Source of the DNA: Pseudomonadota bacterium
GTDB taxonomy: Bacteria > Pseudomonadota > Gammaproteobacteria > BMS3Bbin11
Direction: 5' to 3'
DNA length: 64,000 bases
Assembly: GCA_034659075.1 (NCBI GenBank)
Contig: JAYEGM010000222.1
Span: 290 to 64,289, forward strand
The notes beneath the pieces are model-generated. The model was not told the origin of the DNA and made no database searches. It saw only the letters and a list, made by a program, of their open reading frames with translations. The position numbers and the translations under genes are program-made. Below are positions 4,162 to 23,787 of the stretch, piece after piece (the first letter of the stretch is position 1; the number at the start of each line of letters is the position of its first letter).

Positions 4162-4518
4162 GGGGGCGACCGGTTTCGACACGGGTTACAAAGCCTTCAG
4201 TGCATGTCGAGGAGCAGATCCCCTCGTAAATCCAGCTGCACAACATAGTTGCCAACGACGACAACTACGCACTAGCCGCCTAATACCGGTTAGTCCTTTC
4301 ACCTTTGCTTGATTGTGGGCGGGGATTCGAAAGGTCATCTCACACAGTATCGCGATGAGGCATGTCTGTGGCCAAGTCGTTAAACTTTAAGCAGAATCGC
4401 CGTACGTTTTCCCAGTTTGCCGGGTAGCGGCCGGTTAAATCAAAGGTGCAAACTAAGCATGTAGATCTGGAGTGTAGAGGACTTGTGGACGGGAGTTCGA
4501 TTCTCCCCGCCTCCACCA
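4162..4518 (+). ncRNA. ssrA: tmRNA (SsrA), tag peptide ANDDNYALAA
   Basis: 5-prime GGGGGCGACCGGTTTCGACA; tag reading frame gccaacgacgacaactacgcactagccgcctaa = ANDDNYALAA*; 3-prime tRNA-like end GGACGGGAGTTCGATTCTCCCCGCCTCCACCA. Confidence 0.95.
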
Positions 4519-4724: not shown

Positions 4725-6500
4725 TCACTTCGCACATGCAGAGCCTATTTTTTTGAATAACTCGGTAGATTCAACAGGATGGCGTAGTGAATTCTTGAAT
4801 CCTTTTCCATCAACTTTAGAGGATTTATTATTTCCAATATTGGAATGACTAAACTTGATAAGGGCTAGAATGTCCTCAGAGAATTCAGAAATTTCATTTT
4901 CATTTAATGTGTCAACAACTACGCCATATTTGCATGAACAGCTTTGAGCAGCGTATTTTTTGAGCAGCCTTGATTCATCTTCACATGACCTTACATCGCT
5001 ATTTGATAACACTGCTAGCCGCATTTTACGTGAAAGTTTTTTCGTTGCTGTAATTGAAGAAGCAACACATTCATTGTAATCATTAATGAAATAACCTCCC
5101 CTTTCCCTATAGATTTCCGTGTATTTAATAATATTTTTTGGAAGTTTTTCTCTTTCAATCTTCGCTTTGGCATATAACTCTTTTCTTTCCTCGTGACACT
5201 TTTTATATTCTGCCTGGAAATCATGAATTGTCTTATTATTTGATGCAAGACTTACATATTTTGACGGAGGCTCTTCATTCCGACAATTCATAAAATCTTC
5301 ACCTGCTTTTTTACAAGTTAGGGAAATCAATTCAGTGTCATAACATTCTGTATATCTGGTAGCGATATATTCTTCAAGCCCATCAATCTTATCAAGCATT
5401 TTTGCTTTAGATGCATATTGATTTGGTTGTAGTTTTTTCAGGTTTACTGCATCTTCCTTCCCGCTCTTACATACATCTTCTATCAGCATGTCTGCCTGTG
5501 TCTTTTGTTTTAAGTAGAGCTCCTGGTTCTCCCTCTGAACCCTATTTTTCTCTTCTTCTATACGCCTTTTCTTTATCATTTCGAGTTCAGCCAGATATCC
5601 CTTTTTCCTCTTAGCTACAAGCTGTTCGTCTAATTCCCTCATTGCATTATTAGTTGCTTTGATATTTGCCAATGCAATACTCACTCCGGACAAATACGGC
5701 AAAATCATTTGCCGTTCAATATTGCTCATTTGATAGTCGAAAGGGGCCCCTTTAGTTCTATCAAACGCATTTTTTACATCTCTTTCACCATATGTACTAA
5801 ATGCTTCTTCCGAGTAGCCAATCTGTCCTTTCATTTGCTCTAACTGTCTCTTAAATTGGTCATCCCACAATGCAAAGCTATCTAGATTAAACTCTTTCCA
5901 GCCAGTAATATTGCACCAACGAGCAATAAGCGCCTCATCATTTTTACTAACTAAATAGGCATTCTGGCAACTTTTATTGAATCTCACCCTCAAATCCTCA
6001 GCACGTTTCTTCTCAGTGGCATAGCGACCTGGAACTTCTTCTACCACAGATATCCAGTCATGAAACCAGGCAAATGGTTTTTCAGATGTATGAGGAGGTA
6101 GTTTTAACCCTGAAACATCATGATTATTCTTAGAATATTCCTTATTATTGACCTTTCTCCTGGTAATTTCTTCTGGTGTAAAAGCAGCAGCCTTGCTACC
6201 GCTATTATTGTTGTCTATAGAAGGAATTGGGGTACTTGAAATAGTCGAATTATTTCGCCTGTAACATTTCTCATATTCTTTTCTTATAAGTGCTTCAAGT
6301 TCGATATATTTGCTACCAGCATTTTTCAGGGAGATTCCCCCAGAGTCCATGGTTTTTCCGCTTTTTGCATCATCTCTACCCATCTGACAACCCTGCTTAA
6401 TCAACATATTATGTTGATTAAGCACCTCTGCAGCATTTGAGTCTGAAATCATAATGGGAACAAAAAGTAATATTGCAAAAAAAGAAACTGCAATTTTCAT
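4725..6500 (-). CDS. Hypothetical secreted cysteine-rich coiled-coil protein (signal peptide; K/E-rich; recurring [E/T]Y-x-[EK]-C motifs)
   Basis: 591 aa uninterrupted ORF with N-terminal signal peptide MKIAVSFFAILLFVPIMISDSNA; coding region roughly 35% GC against about 48% in flanks; no recognisable catalytic motifs. Confidence 0.7.
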   Translation of the reverse strand: MKIAVSFFAILLFVPIMISDSNAAEVLNQHNMLIKQGCQMGRDDAKSGKTMDSGGISLKNAGSKYIELEALIRKEYEKCYRRNNSTISSTPIPSIDNNNSGSKAAAFTPEEITRRKVNNKEYSKNNHDVSGLKLPPHTSEKPFAWFHDWISVVEEVPGRYATEKKRAEDLRVRFNKSCQNAYLVSKNDEALIARWCNITGWKEFNLDSFALWDDQFKRQLEQMKGQIGYSEEAFSTYGERDVKNAFDRTKGAPFDYQMSNIERQMILPYLSGVSIALANIKATNNAMRELDEQLVAKRKKGYLAELEMIKKRRIEEEKNRVQRENQELYLKQKTQADMLIEDVCKSGKEDAVNLKKLQPNQYASKAKMLDKIDGLEEYIATRYTECYDTELISLTCKKAGEDFMNCRNEEPPSKYVSLASNNKTIHDFQAEYKKCHEERKELYAKAKIEREKLPKNIIKYTEIYRERGGYFINDYNECVASSITATKKLSRKMRLAVLSNSDVRSCEDESRLLKKYAAQSCSCKYGVVVDTLNENEISEFSEDILALIKFSHSNIGNNKSSKVDGKGFKNSLRHPVESTELFKKIGSACAK

Positions 6501-6804: not shown

Positions 6805-7011
6805 CTAGTCCCGGTAGTGTGGGTCCATCCAGCACTTTGGCAAACTTTCGCCTGAAGGGAAACTTACCCCCACCTTCTTGAAATTTTCTGGTTCTGCGAC
6901 ATCTTCACCGAAATCCAGACGACCTGTGAATGAATCCTTGAAAGGATCAAATACCTCTGTAGGATCCAGTACTTCGATCAGATGACCGGAATTTTTTTCC
7001 ATAAGCAACAT
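6805..7011 (-). CDS. Small acidic hypothetical protein (68 aa)
   Basis: ORF only; no recognised family. Confidence 0.3.
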   Translation of the reverse strand: MLLMEKNSGHLIEVLDPTEVFDPFKDSFTGRLDFGEDVAEPENFKKVGVSFPSGESLPKCWMDPHYRD

Positions 7012-7252: not shown

Positions 7253-8467
7253 ATGGATCTTTACCTGGACAAAACATTACAATTAAAACCAATGCTTGAA
7301 GCTCTGGCACATTCATTAGCGGAAACGGATTACACGATTAACCGCGCCGATGTAGTTCGCTGGCTGCGCCCCTTTGCGGCGACCACACCTACTTTTTATC
7401 TACTATTTGTAATCCCGTTTGCTCTACTGGGATATTTTGCTCTGCTGCTGTTTCCCGCTCTTTCGATCTGGCTATATTTCAAGCTGATAAACTCACTTTA
7501 TTATGCTGCCGACTACCAGCACTGGCCTGACGCCATGATGATTGGCAGCTTCCTGTTACTCAGCACATTGGCAACCATCGCGCTGGCTAGACTGGCTTTC
7601 AGAAACCCGGCAGGAAGTGCTGTCAACGATGAGAGGACGCCGGTACTTTTCCACCTTGTAAAAAAGCTGCAGCAGCACTATGGCAATCCCGGAATTTCCA
7701 GGATACTCATCACGAGAGACGATAGTATACAAATTACCCGCAACCCTGTTAGCGGATTTCCAATTAAGTTTAGAAATACGCTCGAGATAGGCATGTCTGC
7801 CTTATTATGCACCTCACCAATGGAATTTCGCGGCATGCTTGCCAGGGAAATTGCCAAACTAGCCAGTCAGAAGAACCCTGTAACAGGCTGGATGTTAAGC
7901 CTGCATCGACAGTGGGCAGATTATCATTATTATCTTGAGCGTAGCGGAGGCCTTATACTGAAGCCACTGAGCTTTTTCTTTCGCTACTATTCACCTTTAT
8001 ATAATACCGTGTCGTTCTTCGCCGCTCGTCGAGCTGAAATACGGTCAGATCGCTACACACTGGAAGTCATGGAGGACGACGATGCCATCAACGCCATCAT
8101 TCAAACAATAATATTTCAGAATTTCCTGCGGGAAAAATACTGGCCACAGGTCGTGAATCAACCGAAAGACGGAAAACACCGGGTATTCCTGCCCTATAAG
8201 AAAATGAGCCAGACTGTTCGAAAAAACGTCAAACAAACTGATATAGAACGATGGGTTGAACTGGAGCTGCGAAAATTTGGCGATACCAGCACGACTCTAC
8301 CGCCGCTAAAGACCCGCCTTCATCTGTTAGGGCATATAATACCTGTCTATCCACCAGCACTTGAAGAAACTGCAGCAGAACACTATCTTGATTTATCTAT
8401 GCAGCAGCTATTAATTAACAGTTTCGATAAAAGCTGGATTAGGAAAGCAGGAATACAGTCCTCATAA
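7253..8467 (+). CDS. Membrane protein with a degenerate M48/M56-peptidase-like fold (HExxH replaced by RExxK)
   Basis: N-terminal TM helices; segment ...NTLEIGMSALLCTSPMEFRGMLAREIAKLASQKNP resembles the zincin region of M48/BlaR1 peptidases (..gLL..l..eEl.aVlAHElgHi..), but the first His is Arg and the second His is Lys (RExxK), which would abolish zinc binding. Confidence 0.55.
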   Translation: MDLYLDKTLQLKPMLEALAHSLAETDYTINRADVVRWLRPFAATTPTFYLLFVIPFALLGYFALLLFPALSIWLYFKLINSLYYAADYQHWPDAMMIGSFLLLSTLATIALARLAFRNPAGSAVNDERTPVLFHLVKKLQQHYGNPGISRILITRDDSIQITRNPVSGFPIKFRNTLEIGMSALLCTSPMEFRGMLAREIAKLASQKNPVTGWMLSLHRQWADYHYYLERSGGLILKPLSFFFRYYSPLYNTVSFFAARRAEIRSDRYTLEVMEDDDAINAIIQTIIFQNFLREKYWPQVVNQPKDGKHRVFLPYKKMSQTVRKNVKQTDIERWVELELRKFGDTSTTLPPLKTRLHLLGHIIPVYPPALEETAAEHYLDLSMQQLLINSFDKSWIRKAGIQSS

Positions 8468-10381
8468 TTTATCTTCGTGGATAACGATGTCAGATAATTC
8501 ATACAGGCCACGCTCGTAGTCTGAGAATAAATCCTCGCCTTTACGTTGCTTTATAACTAATCGAATTTGATTACGGATATCCTCTGGGACATCCTGTGGA
8601 TTTCCAGGCAGGATTTTTGTAACCGAAAAGATTACATAGTCGCCATTTGCCAGCTGTACACTTCCTGCCGCCTTGTCATTCGCATCAGCACTGACAGAAG
8701 AACGGAATACCTCACTCAACAATGCCGCCGACAAGCCGGTATTTCCACTACGGGAAAGTTCTTTATGATTGGCTAGCGCTAAGGCTTCTGTTTCAGCAAT
8801 CAGCGCAAGTGTCTTATCTCCTGACTGCAACGTCTTTATTAACTCAGCCACCTCTTTGGCAACCAGTTCATTGCTGCGCTGTTTGAGTAACATTTGCTTT
8901 ATTTCATCAGAGACATCTGCCAGCGGCTTTTGCTGCGGCTCACGATGTTCCAGCAACCTCAAGGCAACAAGAGTATCGTCTGATGTTTCAACTACTTCAC
9001 TGTTCAGCCCTTCAAGCAGCACATCTTCTGTAAATGCAGAATCAACAAAAGGACGCTTTTCAGCTATACCCTGCCCGCCTGCTCGCGAAAACCATTCAGT
9101 GGTCGCTATTTTTAACCCCAGTGCATCTGCTGCAGGCTGTAATGTCGTCGGCTGCTCATAGACGATATTTTGCAATTCCTCTGCCATTTGGCCATAGCGT
9201 AAAGATGCCTCACGAAGTGCGTACTCTTTACTGATTTGATCCCTTACATCATCAAAACTTTTCCCTGACTCTGGTCTGGTATCATTTAATTTAATGATGT
9301 GGATTCCGAAACGGCTTTTCACCGGCCCGGACACCTCACCTTCCTGCATGGCAAAAACCTTTTCATCAAAGGCTGCATCCATTACACCTTTTTCAAAATA
9401 TCCCAGGTCGCCGCCATTTTCGGAACTTATGCTATCGACAGAAAACTTCATTGCCATTTCAGCAAAATCCTGACCATCATTCAGCTGCTTCACAAGATCA
9501 GTTACCACTTCCTCTACGCGTTTAATTTCCTCATCACTGGCATCACTCGCGAGAGCAAGTAATATATGTTGAGCCTTACGCTGCTCAGGCTGTATGTACT
9601 GGTCTTTATTCTCCTGATAATAGGTACGCAAGGCCTCTTCATCAGGCTGTATCTGCTCTGCTATACCCATCAGCGACAAAGAAATGTACTCTACCTGCAC
9701 TTCTTCCTCTGTCATGTACTGCTTTTTATTTGATTCGTAATTCTGCTTAATATCTTCTTCCTGGATTTCAACTTTATCAAGGAAACTATCAGCCGCAAGC
9801 GTCACTGATTTAAAATTTCGCTTTTCCTGCTGCAGACGTAATAAATCATCCAGTTCCGCCTCGCTGCTAATAACTGAACGCGTAAAAGCTTCCTTGATCT
9901 GGCCGACAATATTTCCCATCCTTATCTGGCTTTCAAATGCAGTGGGACTAAGGCCATTGTTACGCACTGCCTGAGAGTACAGTTCAGGTGAAAAGGAGCC
10001 ATTCATCTGGAAAGAGGGGTTGGATCTCAAAAAACTGGCGAGTTGCTGATCACCTATCTGGTAATTCTGTTTCTGTATGTCGGCAGTCACCAGGCGCTGG
10101 GTAATCATTTCATTCAAAACCTGTTGCTTGAAAGCAGCTGATTCGAAAATTTTATTATCAACCTTACCGGCAAACTGCTGCCTCAGAGCGTTTCGCTGTC
10201 GTTGCAGCTGCCTCTGGTAATCCTGGGACACCAATTCACTACCATTTATTTCGGCAACCGGTACTTTTTTCTCTGCATCGAAATATTCATTAATACCCCA
10301 TAAAGCAAAGGGCACGGAGATAAGGATTACGATCACCCAGGCAATCCAGCCCTGGGCCCTTTCACGAATTGTAGTGAGCAT
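8462..10381 (-). CDS. ppiD: Periplasmic chaperone / peptidyl-prolyl isomerase PpiD
   Basis: 639 aa; N-terminal TM anchor MLTTIRERAQGWIAWVIVILISVPFALWG; SurA-like and parvulin regions; conserved position downstream of lon-hupB. Confidence 0.9.
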   Translation of the reverse strand: MLTTIRERAQGWIAWVIVILISVPFALWGINEYFDAEKKVPVAEINGSELVSQDYQRQLQRQRNALRQQFAGKVDNKIFESAAFKQQVLNEMITQRLVTADIQKQNYQIGDQQLASFLRSNPSFQMNGSFSPELYSQAVRNNGLSPTAFESQIRMGNIVGQIKEAFTRSVISSEAELDDLLRLQQEKRNFKSVTLAADSFLDKVEIQEEDIKQNYESNKKQYMTEEEVQVEYISLSLMGIAEQIQPDEEALRTYYQENKDQYIQPEQRKAQHILLALASDASDEEIKRVEEVVTDLVKQLNDGQDFAEMAMKFSVDSISSENGGDLGYFEKGVMDAAFDEKVFAMQEGEVSGPVKSRFGIHIIKLNDTRPESGKSFDDVRDQISKEYALREASLRYGQMAEELQNIVYEQPTTLQPAADALGLKIATTEWFSRAGGQGIAEKRPFVDSAFTEDVLLEGLNSEVVETSDDTLVALRLLEHREPQQKPLADVSDEIKQMLLKQRSNELVAKEVAELIKTLQSGDKTLALIAETEALALANHKELSRSGNTGLSAALLSEVFRSSVSADANDKAAGSVQLANGDYVIFSVTKILPGNPQDVPEDIRNQIRLVIKQRKGEDLFSDYERGLYELSDIVIHEDKL

Positions 10382-20920: not shown

Positions 20921-21153
20921 GAATTAATCCGTCATTGCGAGCACAGCGCGGCAATCTCTTTGTTTTGCTGCAGCCGTTTTGAGATTGCTTCGTCACTATG
21001 TTCCTCGTGATGACGAACCGAAGTCACTAGAATGTTTACATGATTCAGTTTTGCATTGGTGCAGACACAAGAAAAAATATCATAAAGGAACCTCTGTGAC
21101 CTCCGTGTCCTCTGTGGTGAAATAGCCTTTAGCCTTTAAATAGGAACTCCCCA

Positions 21154-23787
21154 ATGCGTGATGCCACCCCTTCAGCTATATACCTGAAAGACTACCATAA
21201 ACCCGATTATCTGATTGACACGGTTGATCTTGAATTCGACCTAAAACCTGACCAGACGACTGTCTCTTCCCGCATGCAGGTTCGTCGCCGTGAGGGCGTT
21301 TCAGCCTCTGCACCGTTGTTGCTTGATGGGCAGGAACTTGAACTTATTTCAGTCACTATTAACGATGCACAACAGGATGTATCCAGCCTGCTGCTGACCG
21401 ATAGTGAACTGACACTGACATCACTGCCGGACCGATTTACCCTTGAAATTATCTGCGCCATCAGACCTGAGTTAAACACTAAGCTCGAAGGTCTGTATAA
21501 ATCCGGCAGCATGTACTGCACGCAATGTGAAGCCGAAGGCTTCCGGCGCATTACTTATTTTCCTGATCGGCCGGATATCATGGCACGCTTCAGCACCCGT
21601 ATTATTGCCGATAAAACCGACTATCCCGTACTGCTTTCAAACGGCAACCTTGTGGAGGATGGAGACAGTGATGACAATCGTCACTGGACATACTGGGAAG
21701 ACCCCTACCCTAAACCCTGTTATCTGTTTGCTCTGGTTGCCGGCCCGCTAACTGTACTCGAGGACAGCTACCGCACAACATCTGGCCGCGAAGTCGCGCT
21801 GAAGCTTTATACCGAACCCCACAATAGCAGTAAAACCGATCATGCCATGTGCTCTCTAAAACAGGCCATGCAGTGGGATGAAGAAGTCTTTGGCCTCGAA
21901 TATGATCTCGATTGTTTCATGATCGTCGCAGTCGATGATTTCAACATGGGTGCAATGGAAAACAAGGGCCTGAATATTTTTAACACCGCCTGCGTACTGG
22001 CCCGGCCTGACACAGCGACGGATGCCGACTATGACCGTATACAGTCTATTGTTGGTCATGAATATTTCCATAACTGGACCGGTAACCGCGTCACCTGCCG
22101 CGACTGGTTTCAGCTGAGTCTGAAAGAAGGTTTAACAGTTTTTCGGGACCAGGAGTTTAGCGCAGACCTTAACTCTCGCGCAGTCAAACGAATTGAAGAA
22201 GTGCGCGTGCTGCGCGGCCATCAGTTTCCTGAAGATGACGGCCCGACAGCACATTCTGTAAGACCGGATAATTACATAGAAATAAGCAACTTCTACACCT
22301 CTACCATCTACCGCAAAGGAGCTGAAGTTATCCGCATGATGCATACACTGATCGGCGGCGATGCCTTTCGACGGGGCATGGATCTTTACTTCAAGCGCCA
22401 CGATGGCCAGGCGGTCACTACGGATGATTTTGTCTGTGCCATGGAAGATGCAAGCCAACAGGACCTGGGGCAATTTCGTCTCTGGTACAGCCAGGCCGGG
22501 ACACCGGAACTTGAAATCAGTACGGAGTTTGATGAAGTAAAAGCTGAGCTGAAACTTGAGGTCAGTCAGCATACGCCTGTCACCCCCGGTCAGTCGAATA
22601 AACTGCCTTTGCATATCCCCTTCTCCATCGGCCTGATCGATAAATGTGGCAACGACATCACCGTGCAACTCAGCAGTGAAAAGACTGCCCCTGCAGCAGG
22701 CACCCGGACATTGGATGTTCGCAACAGCAGCGAAACTTTTATTTTCAAAACAGGTAGTAATCGACCGCAGCTTTCGCTGCTGCGAAATTTCTCTGCACCG
22801 GTTCGCATCATCAGCAAACAGTCACTGGAAGAACTCTGCTTTCTACTACGCTACGACAGCGATCCGTTTAATCGGTGGGAAGCCGGCCAGCAACTGGCCA
22901 TGGCACAGATGCAGGCTCTCATAACAGATAAAAACCACCAGGTCCCGGATACTGTCTTCGATGCCTACGCAGAGGTACTCGAAAATCCAGCGCTGGATCC
23001 CACTCTGATTTCCGAGATATTTATCCTGCCGGGTGAAAGCTATCTTGCCGACAATATGGAAACCGTGGACATTGATGGCATACACAGAGCAAGCCGGCAC
23101 TTCGCAAAGCTTCTTGCAAAAAAACTGGAAAGCCAGTTCAGCGCAATTGCAGAGAGAAAAGTCACCCGCACAGCTTACAGTTTTAACGCCAAGGACGTTG
23201 CCAGGCGAAGATTGCACAATCTGTCTTTATCATACCTGATGGAACTACCCGACAGTAAATATGTAAAGCTTTGTTTGCAGCACTTTCAGCAGGCAGACAA
23301 CATGACCGACAGCCTGAATGCACTGATTGCCCTGTCAAACCGCGATTGTGGTGCATGCAACCAGGCGCTGGAGTCATTCTACGAAAAATGGTCTGCTGAT
23401 GTTCTGGTGGTGAATAAGTGGCTATCTGTACAGGCCATGTCCCGCTTGCCGGGCACACTCGACAGAGTTCGTGCGTTAACTGAACATGAAGCTTTTGAAA
23501 TCAGAAACCCCAATAAAGTACGTGCACTGATTGGCACTTTCTGTAGCGCTAACCAGGCCCAGTTTCATGCGGAAGATGGTCAGGGTTACGCCTTTCTGAC
23601 TGAATATATCATCAGTATTGATGCACTGAATCCGCAGATTGCTGCCAGGCTATTGACGCCCCTGACAAGATGGAAGCGCATGGATAGCAAGCGTCAATTG
23701 CTGATGAAAAAGGCTTTGGAGATTATACTCTCGCATGCAGGACTGTCCCGTGATGTGTATGAAATTGTCAGTAAGTCGCTGGCCTGA
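21154..23787 (+). CDS. pepN: Aminopeptidase N
   Basis: 877 aa; GAMEN and HEYFHNWTGNRVT...LKEG zinc motifs. Confidence 0.97.
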   Translation: MRDATPSAIYLKDYHKPDYLIDTVDLEFDLKPDQTTVSSRMQVRRREGVSASAPLLLDGQELELISVTINDAQQDVSSLLLTDSELTLTSLPDRFTLEIICAIRPELNTKLEGLYKSGSMYCTQCEAEGFRRITYFPDRPDIMARFSTRIIADKTDYPVLLSNGNLVEDGDSDDNRHWTYWEDPYPKPCYLFALVAGPLTVLEDSYRTTSGREVALKLYTEPHNSSKTDHAMCSLKQAMQWDEEVFGLEYDLDCFMIVAVDDFNMGAMENKGLNIFNTACVLARPDTATDADYDRIQSIVGHEYFHNWTGNRVTCRDWFQLSLKEGLTVFRDQEFSADLNSRAVKRIEEVRVLRGHQFPEDDGPTAHSVRPDNYIEISNFYTSTIYRKGAEVIRMMHTLIGGDAFRRGMDLYFKRHDGQAVTTDDFVCAMEDASQQDLGQFRLWYSQAGTPELEISTEFDEVKAELKLEVSQHTPVTPGQSNKLPLHIPFSIGLIDKCGNDITVQLSSEKTAPAAGTRTLDVRNSSETFIFKTGSNRPQLSLLRNFSAPVRIISKQSLEELCFLLRYDSDPFNRWEAGQQLAMAQMQALITDKNHQVPDTVFDAYAEVLENPALDPTLISEIFILPGESYLADNMETVDIDGIHRASRHFAKLLAKKLESQFSAIAERKVTRTAYSFNAKDVARRRLHNLSLSYLMELPDSKYVKLCLQHFQQADNMTDSLNALIALSNRDCGACNQALESFYEKWSADVLVVNKWLSVQAMSRLPGTLDRVRALTEHEAFEIRNPNKVRALIGTFCSANQAQFHAEDGQGYAFLTEYIISIDALNPQIAARLLTPLTRWKRMDSKRQLLMKKALEIILSHAGLSRDVYEIVSKSLA

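Follow-up and report, generated by a model that had tools for sequence, protein, structure and literature searches.

An M48-like membrane protein with replaced zinc ligands as a probable pseudo-peptidase in a gammaproteobacterium

The gene described in this work lies at 7253..8467 (+) of a 64,000-nucleotide stretch of contig JAYEGM010000222.1 (the window, analysed as a whole) from the gammaproteobacterial assembly GCA_034659075.1, and it encodes a membrane protein with a degenerate metallopeptidase motif. As shown below, this protein shares ancestry and fold with the M48 peptidases and its gene is functional and under purifying selection but, judging from its residues, it is most likely not a zinc protease. 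M48 enzymes have an HExxH motif, a zinc-binding Glu and an HPx4R active-site plug, the His of which is the fourth zinc ligand (Bryant et al., PMC7950410). Three of the four zinc ligands are replaced in the protein studied here (His by Arg198, His by Lys202 and the plug His by Leu349), so that it cannot bind a catalytic zinc as M48 enzymes do; still in place are the general base (Glu199), the third ligand (Glu262) and Asp266, Pro350 and Arg355. We consider it probable that the protein carries no catalytic zinc and is not a protease, that an Arg198-Glu262 pair stabilises the cleft and that the groove binds a peptide or a partner, which would make it a pseudo-peptidase.

Searched by itself, the protein gave no M48 or M56 match in Pfam even at E <= 10 (hmmscan), no NCBIfam match, the HtpX model included, and no sequence match in the PDB. 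Profiles of its close family (A1) and of degenerate relatives only (A3, 42 sequences) also returned nothing beyond noise from Pfam, NCBIfam and the PDB (NBAS, heme lyase, MerF, Gemin6), and a word-indexed profile search with A3 recovered almost only the same close family, with no informative names. Thus, of the two profiles that a first-pass annotation of this DNA had proposed to check, PF01435 and PF05569, neither was matched by the protein alone, yet intermediate sequences settle its relation to M48. When 1.84 billion cluster representatives were searched exhaustively with phmmer, 1,816 relatives were recovered at E <= 1e-3, 1,104 of them at E <= 1e-10. The top ~150 were aligned and comprise 28 HExxH-bearing and 122 degenerate sequences, to which the residue counts for the two groups given below refer. 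In the HExxH group, H-E-x-x-H falls exactly in the columns of R198-E199-x-x-K202, Glu at 262 and Asp at 266 are invariant, and T-H-P-x4-R occupies positions 348-355. All five HExxH relatives scanned pass PF01435 (36-53 bits against a gathering threshold of 20.3), weak matches to the NCBIfam HtpX model were obtained for HExxH relatives, and a degenerate relative (P0045) scored 17.2 bits against PF01435, under the cut-off. BLASTP aligned the protein with the HExxH relative P0176 at 1e-29 across residues 24-397, with LAREIAKL on LAHECGHL, and hhalign comparison of A1 with the profile of the HExxH group (A4) gave a probability of 100% and E = 1.2e-46 over 369 columns, pairing REIAK with HExGH, E262 with the zinc Glu and L349-P-x4-R355 with HPx4R. 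Against PDB sequences, A4 matched Ste24p (5.8e-7) and ZMPSTE24 (9e-4); a mixed profile (A2) was swamped by tetratricopeptide repeat (TPR) matches from long relatives and reached M48 and BlaR1 just at E = 0.08-0.5. A five-residue RExxK is trivial on its own; here it is more than chance, because full-length homology sets it column for column on the HExxH of bona fide M48 proteins.

The first-pass annotation had also suggested superposing a predicted structure on HtpX and BlaR1. For the AlphaFold model that was accepted, built from a 105-sequence alignment, the top Foldseek match was the HtpX domain 3cqb with a probability of 0.99; the values tabulated were 9.2 for Ste24p, 8.6 for ZMPSTE24, 8.4 for BepA, 7.7 for both proabylysin and the M48 protein 3c37, and 7.3 for both projannalysin and selecase. 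A first model, built from a shallow alignment of 20 sequences, was discarded (pLDDT 63.8, meaningless Foldseek matches).

The degenerate HExxH, R198-E199-I-A-K202, is encoded at 7844..7858 (+); of the motif residues only the catalytic Glu is left, with substitutions at both zinc His. This bears out the earlier observation that the zincin His pair is replaced by Arg and Lys, since R198 and K202 align on the HExxH columns. The third zinc-ligand Glu and the conserved Asp of the ExxAD motif, aligned with the HExxH group, are found in E262-I-R-S-D266 at 8036..8050 (+), and a degenerate HPx4R plug, L349-P-P-L-K-T-R355 at 8297..8317 (+), has lost its His and retained Pro and Arg. As to whether orthologs keep HExxH, none of 20 aligned close homologs does, all having Arg at 198, with K, R or N at 202 and E199 kept in 19/20, so that the motif of this subfamily reads RExx[K/R/N]; among wider relatives, HExxH occurs in the 28 described above. 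The degenerate group has Arg at 198 in 99/122, R (44), K (27) or E (16) at 199, and Q (82), R (14) or H (8) at 202, giving the consensus R-[R/K/E]-x-x-[Q/R/K]. E262 is present in 28/28 of the HExxH group and 83/122 of the degenerate relatives, D266 in 28/28 and 116/122, and R355 in 115 of the 122, while the plug His, kept in 28/28 of the HExxH group, gives way to M, T, V or L in the degenerate one. Thirteen positions, H198, H202, H207 and H349 among them, came out of a scan for residues that the HExxH group conserves but that have switched or disappeared in the 122 degenerate sequences, and scaffold residues common to both groups are G180, W221, D266, W297, P350, R355 and W395. The HExxH clade also has an extra conserved His five residues past the motif (HExxHxxxxH, 27/28), in the column of K207 of our protein; it does not count among the canonical M48 motifs and has likewise gone from most of the degenerate clade. 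Overall, of the three motif features by which M48 is defined, our protein lacks two (the HExxH and the His of HPx4R) and has the third (the third-ligand Glu within ExxAD), and it falls below the PF01435 threshold. It is best classified as a homolog of M48 and a pseudo-peptidase, and not as an M48 peptidase.

Forty homologs with 49-91% identity are all intact, and the ratio of nonsynonymous to synonymous substitution rates (dN/dS) is 0.06-0.13 against five orthologs with unsaturated dS. Homology to an enzyme family, missing metal ligands and purifying selection, the features expected of a pseudo-peptidase, are thus combined in this protein. Arg198 is invariant in the 42 sequences of A3 and, within the degenerate clade, the association of R198 with E262 is stronger than with any of 60 comparably variable columns. 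An Arg guanidinium that takes the place of the metal and pairs with the former third ligand would be expected to leave such covariation, which suggests that the Arg198-Glu262 pair may replace zinc.

With respect to the membrane, two transmembrane helices are predicted from hydropathy, one at residues 46-76 (7388..7480, +; helix 46-83 in the AlphaFold model) and the other at residues 93-112 (7529..7588, +), separated by a predicted periplasmic loop of ~16 residues. Both flanks are rich in Lys and Arg, and the family-wide means of these residues (144 members) are 2.94 in the N flank, 0.47 in the loop and 2.95 in the C flank. By the positive-inside rule, this predicts a hairpin with both termini in the cytoplasm and a cytoplasmic M48-like domain, encompassing residues 118-398 (7604..8446, +). 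HtpX has the same orientation, an N-in hairpin with a cytoplasmic M48 domain.

We hypothesize that this is an inner-membrane protein in which an N-terminal two-helix hairpin would anchor a cytoplasm-facing domain of the M48 fold (HtpX/Ste24/BepA). The Arg198 guanidinium would pair with Glu262, possibly also with Asp266, fill the former metal site and maintain the fold of the cleft in the absence of zinc. The groove and the plug scaffold, both preserved, could bind, and not cut, an extended polypeptide segment or a partner at the cytoplasmic face of the membrane, and the protein may act as a non-catalytic holder, adaptor or regulator, like other pseudo-peptidases. Several points weigh against this proposal. 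The loss of activity is read from residues alone, the topology from the positive-inside rule only, and the M48 ancestry depends on intermediates, though very strong ones. The association between R198 and E262 (Fisher p = 4e-5) is uncorrected for phylogeny. The retained Glu199, Glu262 and Asp266 might in theory serve as ligands of a different metal or take part in a different chemistry. Neither a partner nor a substrate is indicated by gene order, as no operon partner recurred across five distant contexts compared, and the ppiD-hupB-lon-clpX neighbourhood is kept only among the close homologs examined, with ppiD convergent.

A broader version of this hypothesis, which we put forward tentatively and regard as rather unlikely to hold in full, would extend it to a widespread Arg-substituted M48 clade in which an Arg-Glu bridge permanently replaces zinc and whose members act as non-cleaving substrate traps or adaptors in inner-membrane quality control, for example by handing clients to FtsH, Lon or HtpX or by shielding them from these proteases.

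A different explanation, which we consider unlikely, is that of a re-tooled enzyme in which R198, E199, K/R202, E262, D266 and R355 form a new active or ligand site, either coordinating Mg, Mn or Ca through carboxylates with Glu199 as the base, or binding an anion or phosphate such as a lipid head group, a phosphopeptide or a C-terminal carboxylate. The wider clade does keep a constellation of R, R/K, Q, E, D and R, and the frequencies of R198, D266, R355 and E262 reported above indicate that former active-site positions are selected and not drifting; the retention of E199 in the close family and a whole-gene dN/dS of ~0.1 point in the same direction. However, R or K predominates at position 199 of the degenerate group (71/122), with E in just 16/122, making a shared Glu-based hydrolysis unlikely, and structural or binding roles account equally well for the conservation. 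To our knowledge, no M48 relative has metal-independent activity.

The first-pass annotation had compared the segment with the active site of both M48 and M56 peptidases and had drawn an analogy with anti-sigma and signal-transducing pseudoenzymes; the M48 part was upheld by the alignment with the HExxH group and the M56 part was not. A transducer of the BlaR1/MecR1 type (M56) or of the anti-sigma type, passing signals through the membrane to a regulator of transcription, would fit a membrane-anchored cytoplasmic zincin-like domain, which resembles the BlaR1 topology, and BlaR1 appears as a very weak sequence match (E = 0.49). Nevertheless, PF05569 was matched neither by the protein nor by 10 of its relatives, no sensor domain was found and no regulator gene is adjacent, so that we see this role as very improbable and, with no conserved operon partner either, the analogy as unsupported. 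Finally, the idea that the motif arose by chance in a membrane protein of other ancestry, or that the gene is a decaying protease pseudogene, would be compatible with the lack of any Pfam, NCBIfam or PDB sequence match for the protein alone, but it is refuted by the 1,816 relatives, the HExxH relatives passing PF01435, the hhalign result and the low dN/dS.

The 404-residue open reading frame that the first-pass annotation had reported for a membrane protein is present on the forward strand, and hydropathy shows N-terminal membrane helices in its product; it is the longest frame at this position (404 codons plus stop) and is intact. The peptide that had been quoted from it, NTLEIGMSALLCTSPMEFRGMLAREIAKLASQKNP, corresponds to residues 175-209 (nucleotides 7775-7879). 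Most orthologs begin at a Met equivalent to Met14 (ATG at 7292..7294, +). Because residues 1-13 are not conserved and in-frame stops occur upstream of the equivalent of Met14 in 6/8 ortholog loci (L001, L002, L004, L005, L006 and L010), the true start is probably at 7292, which would leave residues 1-13 untranslated and give a product of 391 residues.

The placement of the gene between the ssrA region and ppiD, also described earlier, was confirmed. The tmRNA gene (ssrA) is at 4162-4518, and two open reading frames, neither with a family match, lie between it and the M48-like gene; downstream, the convergent ppiD (8462-10381; Pfam SurA_N and Rotamase domains) is followed by tRNA-Asp, tRNA-Val, hupB and lon. 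The 3' ends of the M48-like gene and ppiD overlap by 6 nucleotides (8462-8467), with the TAA stop of the former at 8465-8467 and the TGA of ppiD at 8462-8464 on the minus strand; in two ortholog loci (L001 and L002) a gap of 54-184 nucleotides separates the two genes. The order smpB-ssrA-[M48-like gene], convergent ppiD, hupB, lon and clpX is kept in the examined orthologs, down to 49% identity, and distant RRxxQ members of the family occur in unrelated genomic contexts; this chaperone and protease neighbourhood is suggestive at most. Of the two intervening frames, one of 68 codons (6805-7011, -), divergent from the M48-like gene and without a Pfam match, has 89-96% identical copies at the equivalent site of the ortholog loci that are closest (L004, L005 and L010) and is probably, by this conservation, a real small gene. 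The other, of 591 codons (4725-6500, -), lies directly downstream of ssrA, matches nothing in Pfam and has a 67%-identical copy in a single ortholog locus (L006); it looks like a variable insert adjoining ssrA, and in L002 the distance from ssrA to the M48-like gene is just ~0.8 kb. No second M48-like gene was found in the 64-kb window. Among its large open reading frames, the only plausible intact zincin motif, GHEYFHNWTGN, is in one of 884 codons (21133-23784, +), which we take to be aminopeptidase N (M1) and which is unrelated to the M48-like gene.

Orthologs with 70-89% identity are found in metagenome-assembled genomes of Arenicellales and of other unclassified Gammaproteobacteria, and a genome scan with A1 returned only such orthologs from Arenicellales and Gammaproteobacteria plus one match with 29% identity. 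The latter (L011; JABDRC010000177.1, 182-1198) is on a 4.2-kb contig binned in a metagenome-assembled genome labelled 'Halobacteria archaeon', and it may represent either a mis-binned bacterial contig or an extension of the degenerate family to archaea. In a midpoint-rooted neighbour-joining tree, computed without support values and not used for the order of residue losses, the HExxH group is monophyletic. The degenerate clade is sister to an HExxH-bearing clade of equal membrane architecture. At 50% identity, at least ~120 clusters of the top 150 relatives belong to the degenerate clade. Several relatives of 500-650 residues (P0106, P0110, P0044, P0046 and others), both HExxH-bearing and degenerate, have C-terminal TPR repeats, a combination of M48 and TPR that is reminiscent of BepA, although membrane-anchored; the subfamily of our protein is devoid of TPR.

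Full-text literature searches on pseudo-enzymes of the M48/HtpX type returned nothing relevant, and a 2024 review of pseudo-metallopeptidases (PMC11266112) makes no mention of M48, HtpX, Ste24 or M56. Neither Pfam nor NCBIfam has a model for the degenerate proteins, which are annotated publicly as 'hypothetical' (for instance, WP_310693022.1 of Thiohalophilus), and two close homologs (P0015 and P0029) are mislabelled as 'Zn-dependent protease with chaperone function'. Our protein therefore appears to be an example of an undescribed bacterial pseudo-metallopeptidase, within a sizeable undescribed clade. Quality control of membrane and envelope proteins depends centrally on M48 proteases (HtpX, BepA, Ste24 and Oma1), and the degenerate clade carries a selected pattern in which the first His has become Arg, the second Gln, Lys or Arg, and the plug His is lost. 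If the replacement of zinc and a role in quality control hold true, a bacterial M48 pseudo-protease would for the first time have a defined role. The clade also offers a candidate non-catalytic partner of the membrane quality-control machinery and a natural experiment on the stability of the gluzincin fold without metal, and the alignments would permit a profile to be built that ends both the 'hypothetical' and the wrong 'Zn-dependent protease' labels.

Compared with known systems, the protein resembles the pseudo-metallopeptidases already described (PMC11266112), which have kept the fold without the catalytic metal ligands and are presumed to bind or regulate without catalysis. The CAAX prenyl proteases Ste24p and ZMPSTE24 (M48A) form a seven-helix membrane barrel with an intact HExxH...E, whereas our protein has two predicted helices and no zinc site. 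BepA (YfgC) is a soluble periplasmic M48 protease and chaperone with TPR, in which the zinc site is intact (H136, H140, E201 and H246; PMC7950410); our protein is membrane-anchored, predicted to be cytoplasmic, and has neither TPR nor the zinc His. The HExxH sister clade, labelled 'Zn-dependent protease with chaperone function' by JGI, contains proteins of 376-650 residues with a membrane anchor, an M48 domain and, in longer members, TPR, and is collinear with our protein over ~370 residues, the membrane hairpin included; it conserves H198, E199, H202, H207, E262 and H349, while our protein has lost the four His and has no TPR tail. HtpX (M48B), from E. coli and other bacteria, shares with it the N-terminal hairpin, an M48 domain predicted to be cytoplasmic and the core fold, as well as the third-ligand Glu and the Px4R of the plug. 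In contrast to HtpX, RExxK and the plug Leu predict no zinc site, hydrophobicity is no more than mild in the stretch that links the motif helix to the Glu helix, and the protein is ~100 residues longer, with a helical C-terminal extension (residues ~275-398). In placement and fold, it is to HtpX that this protein is closest.
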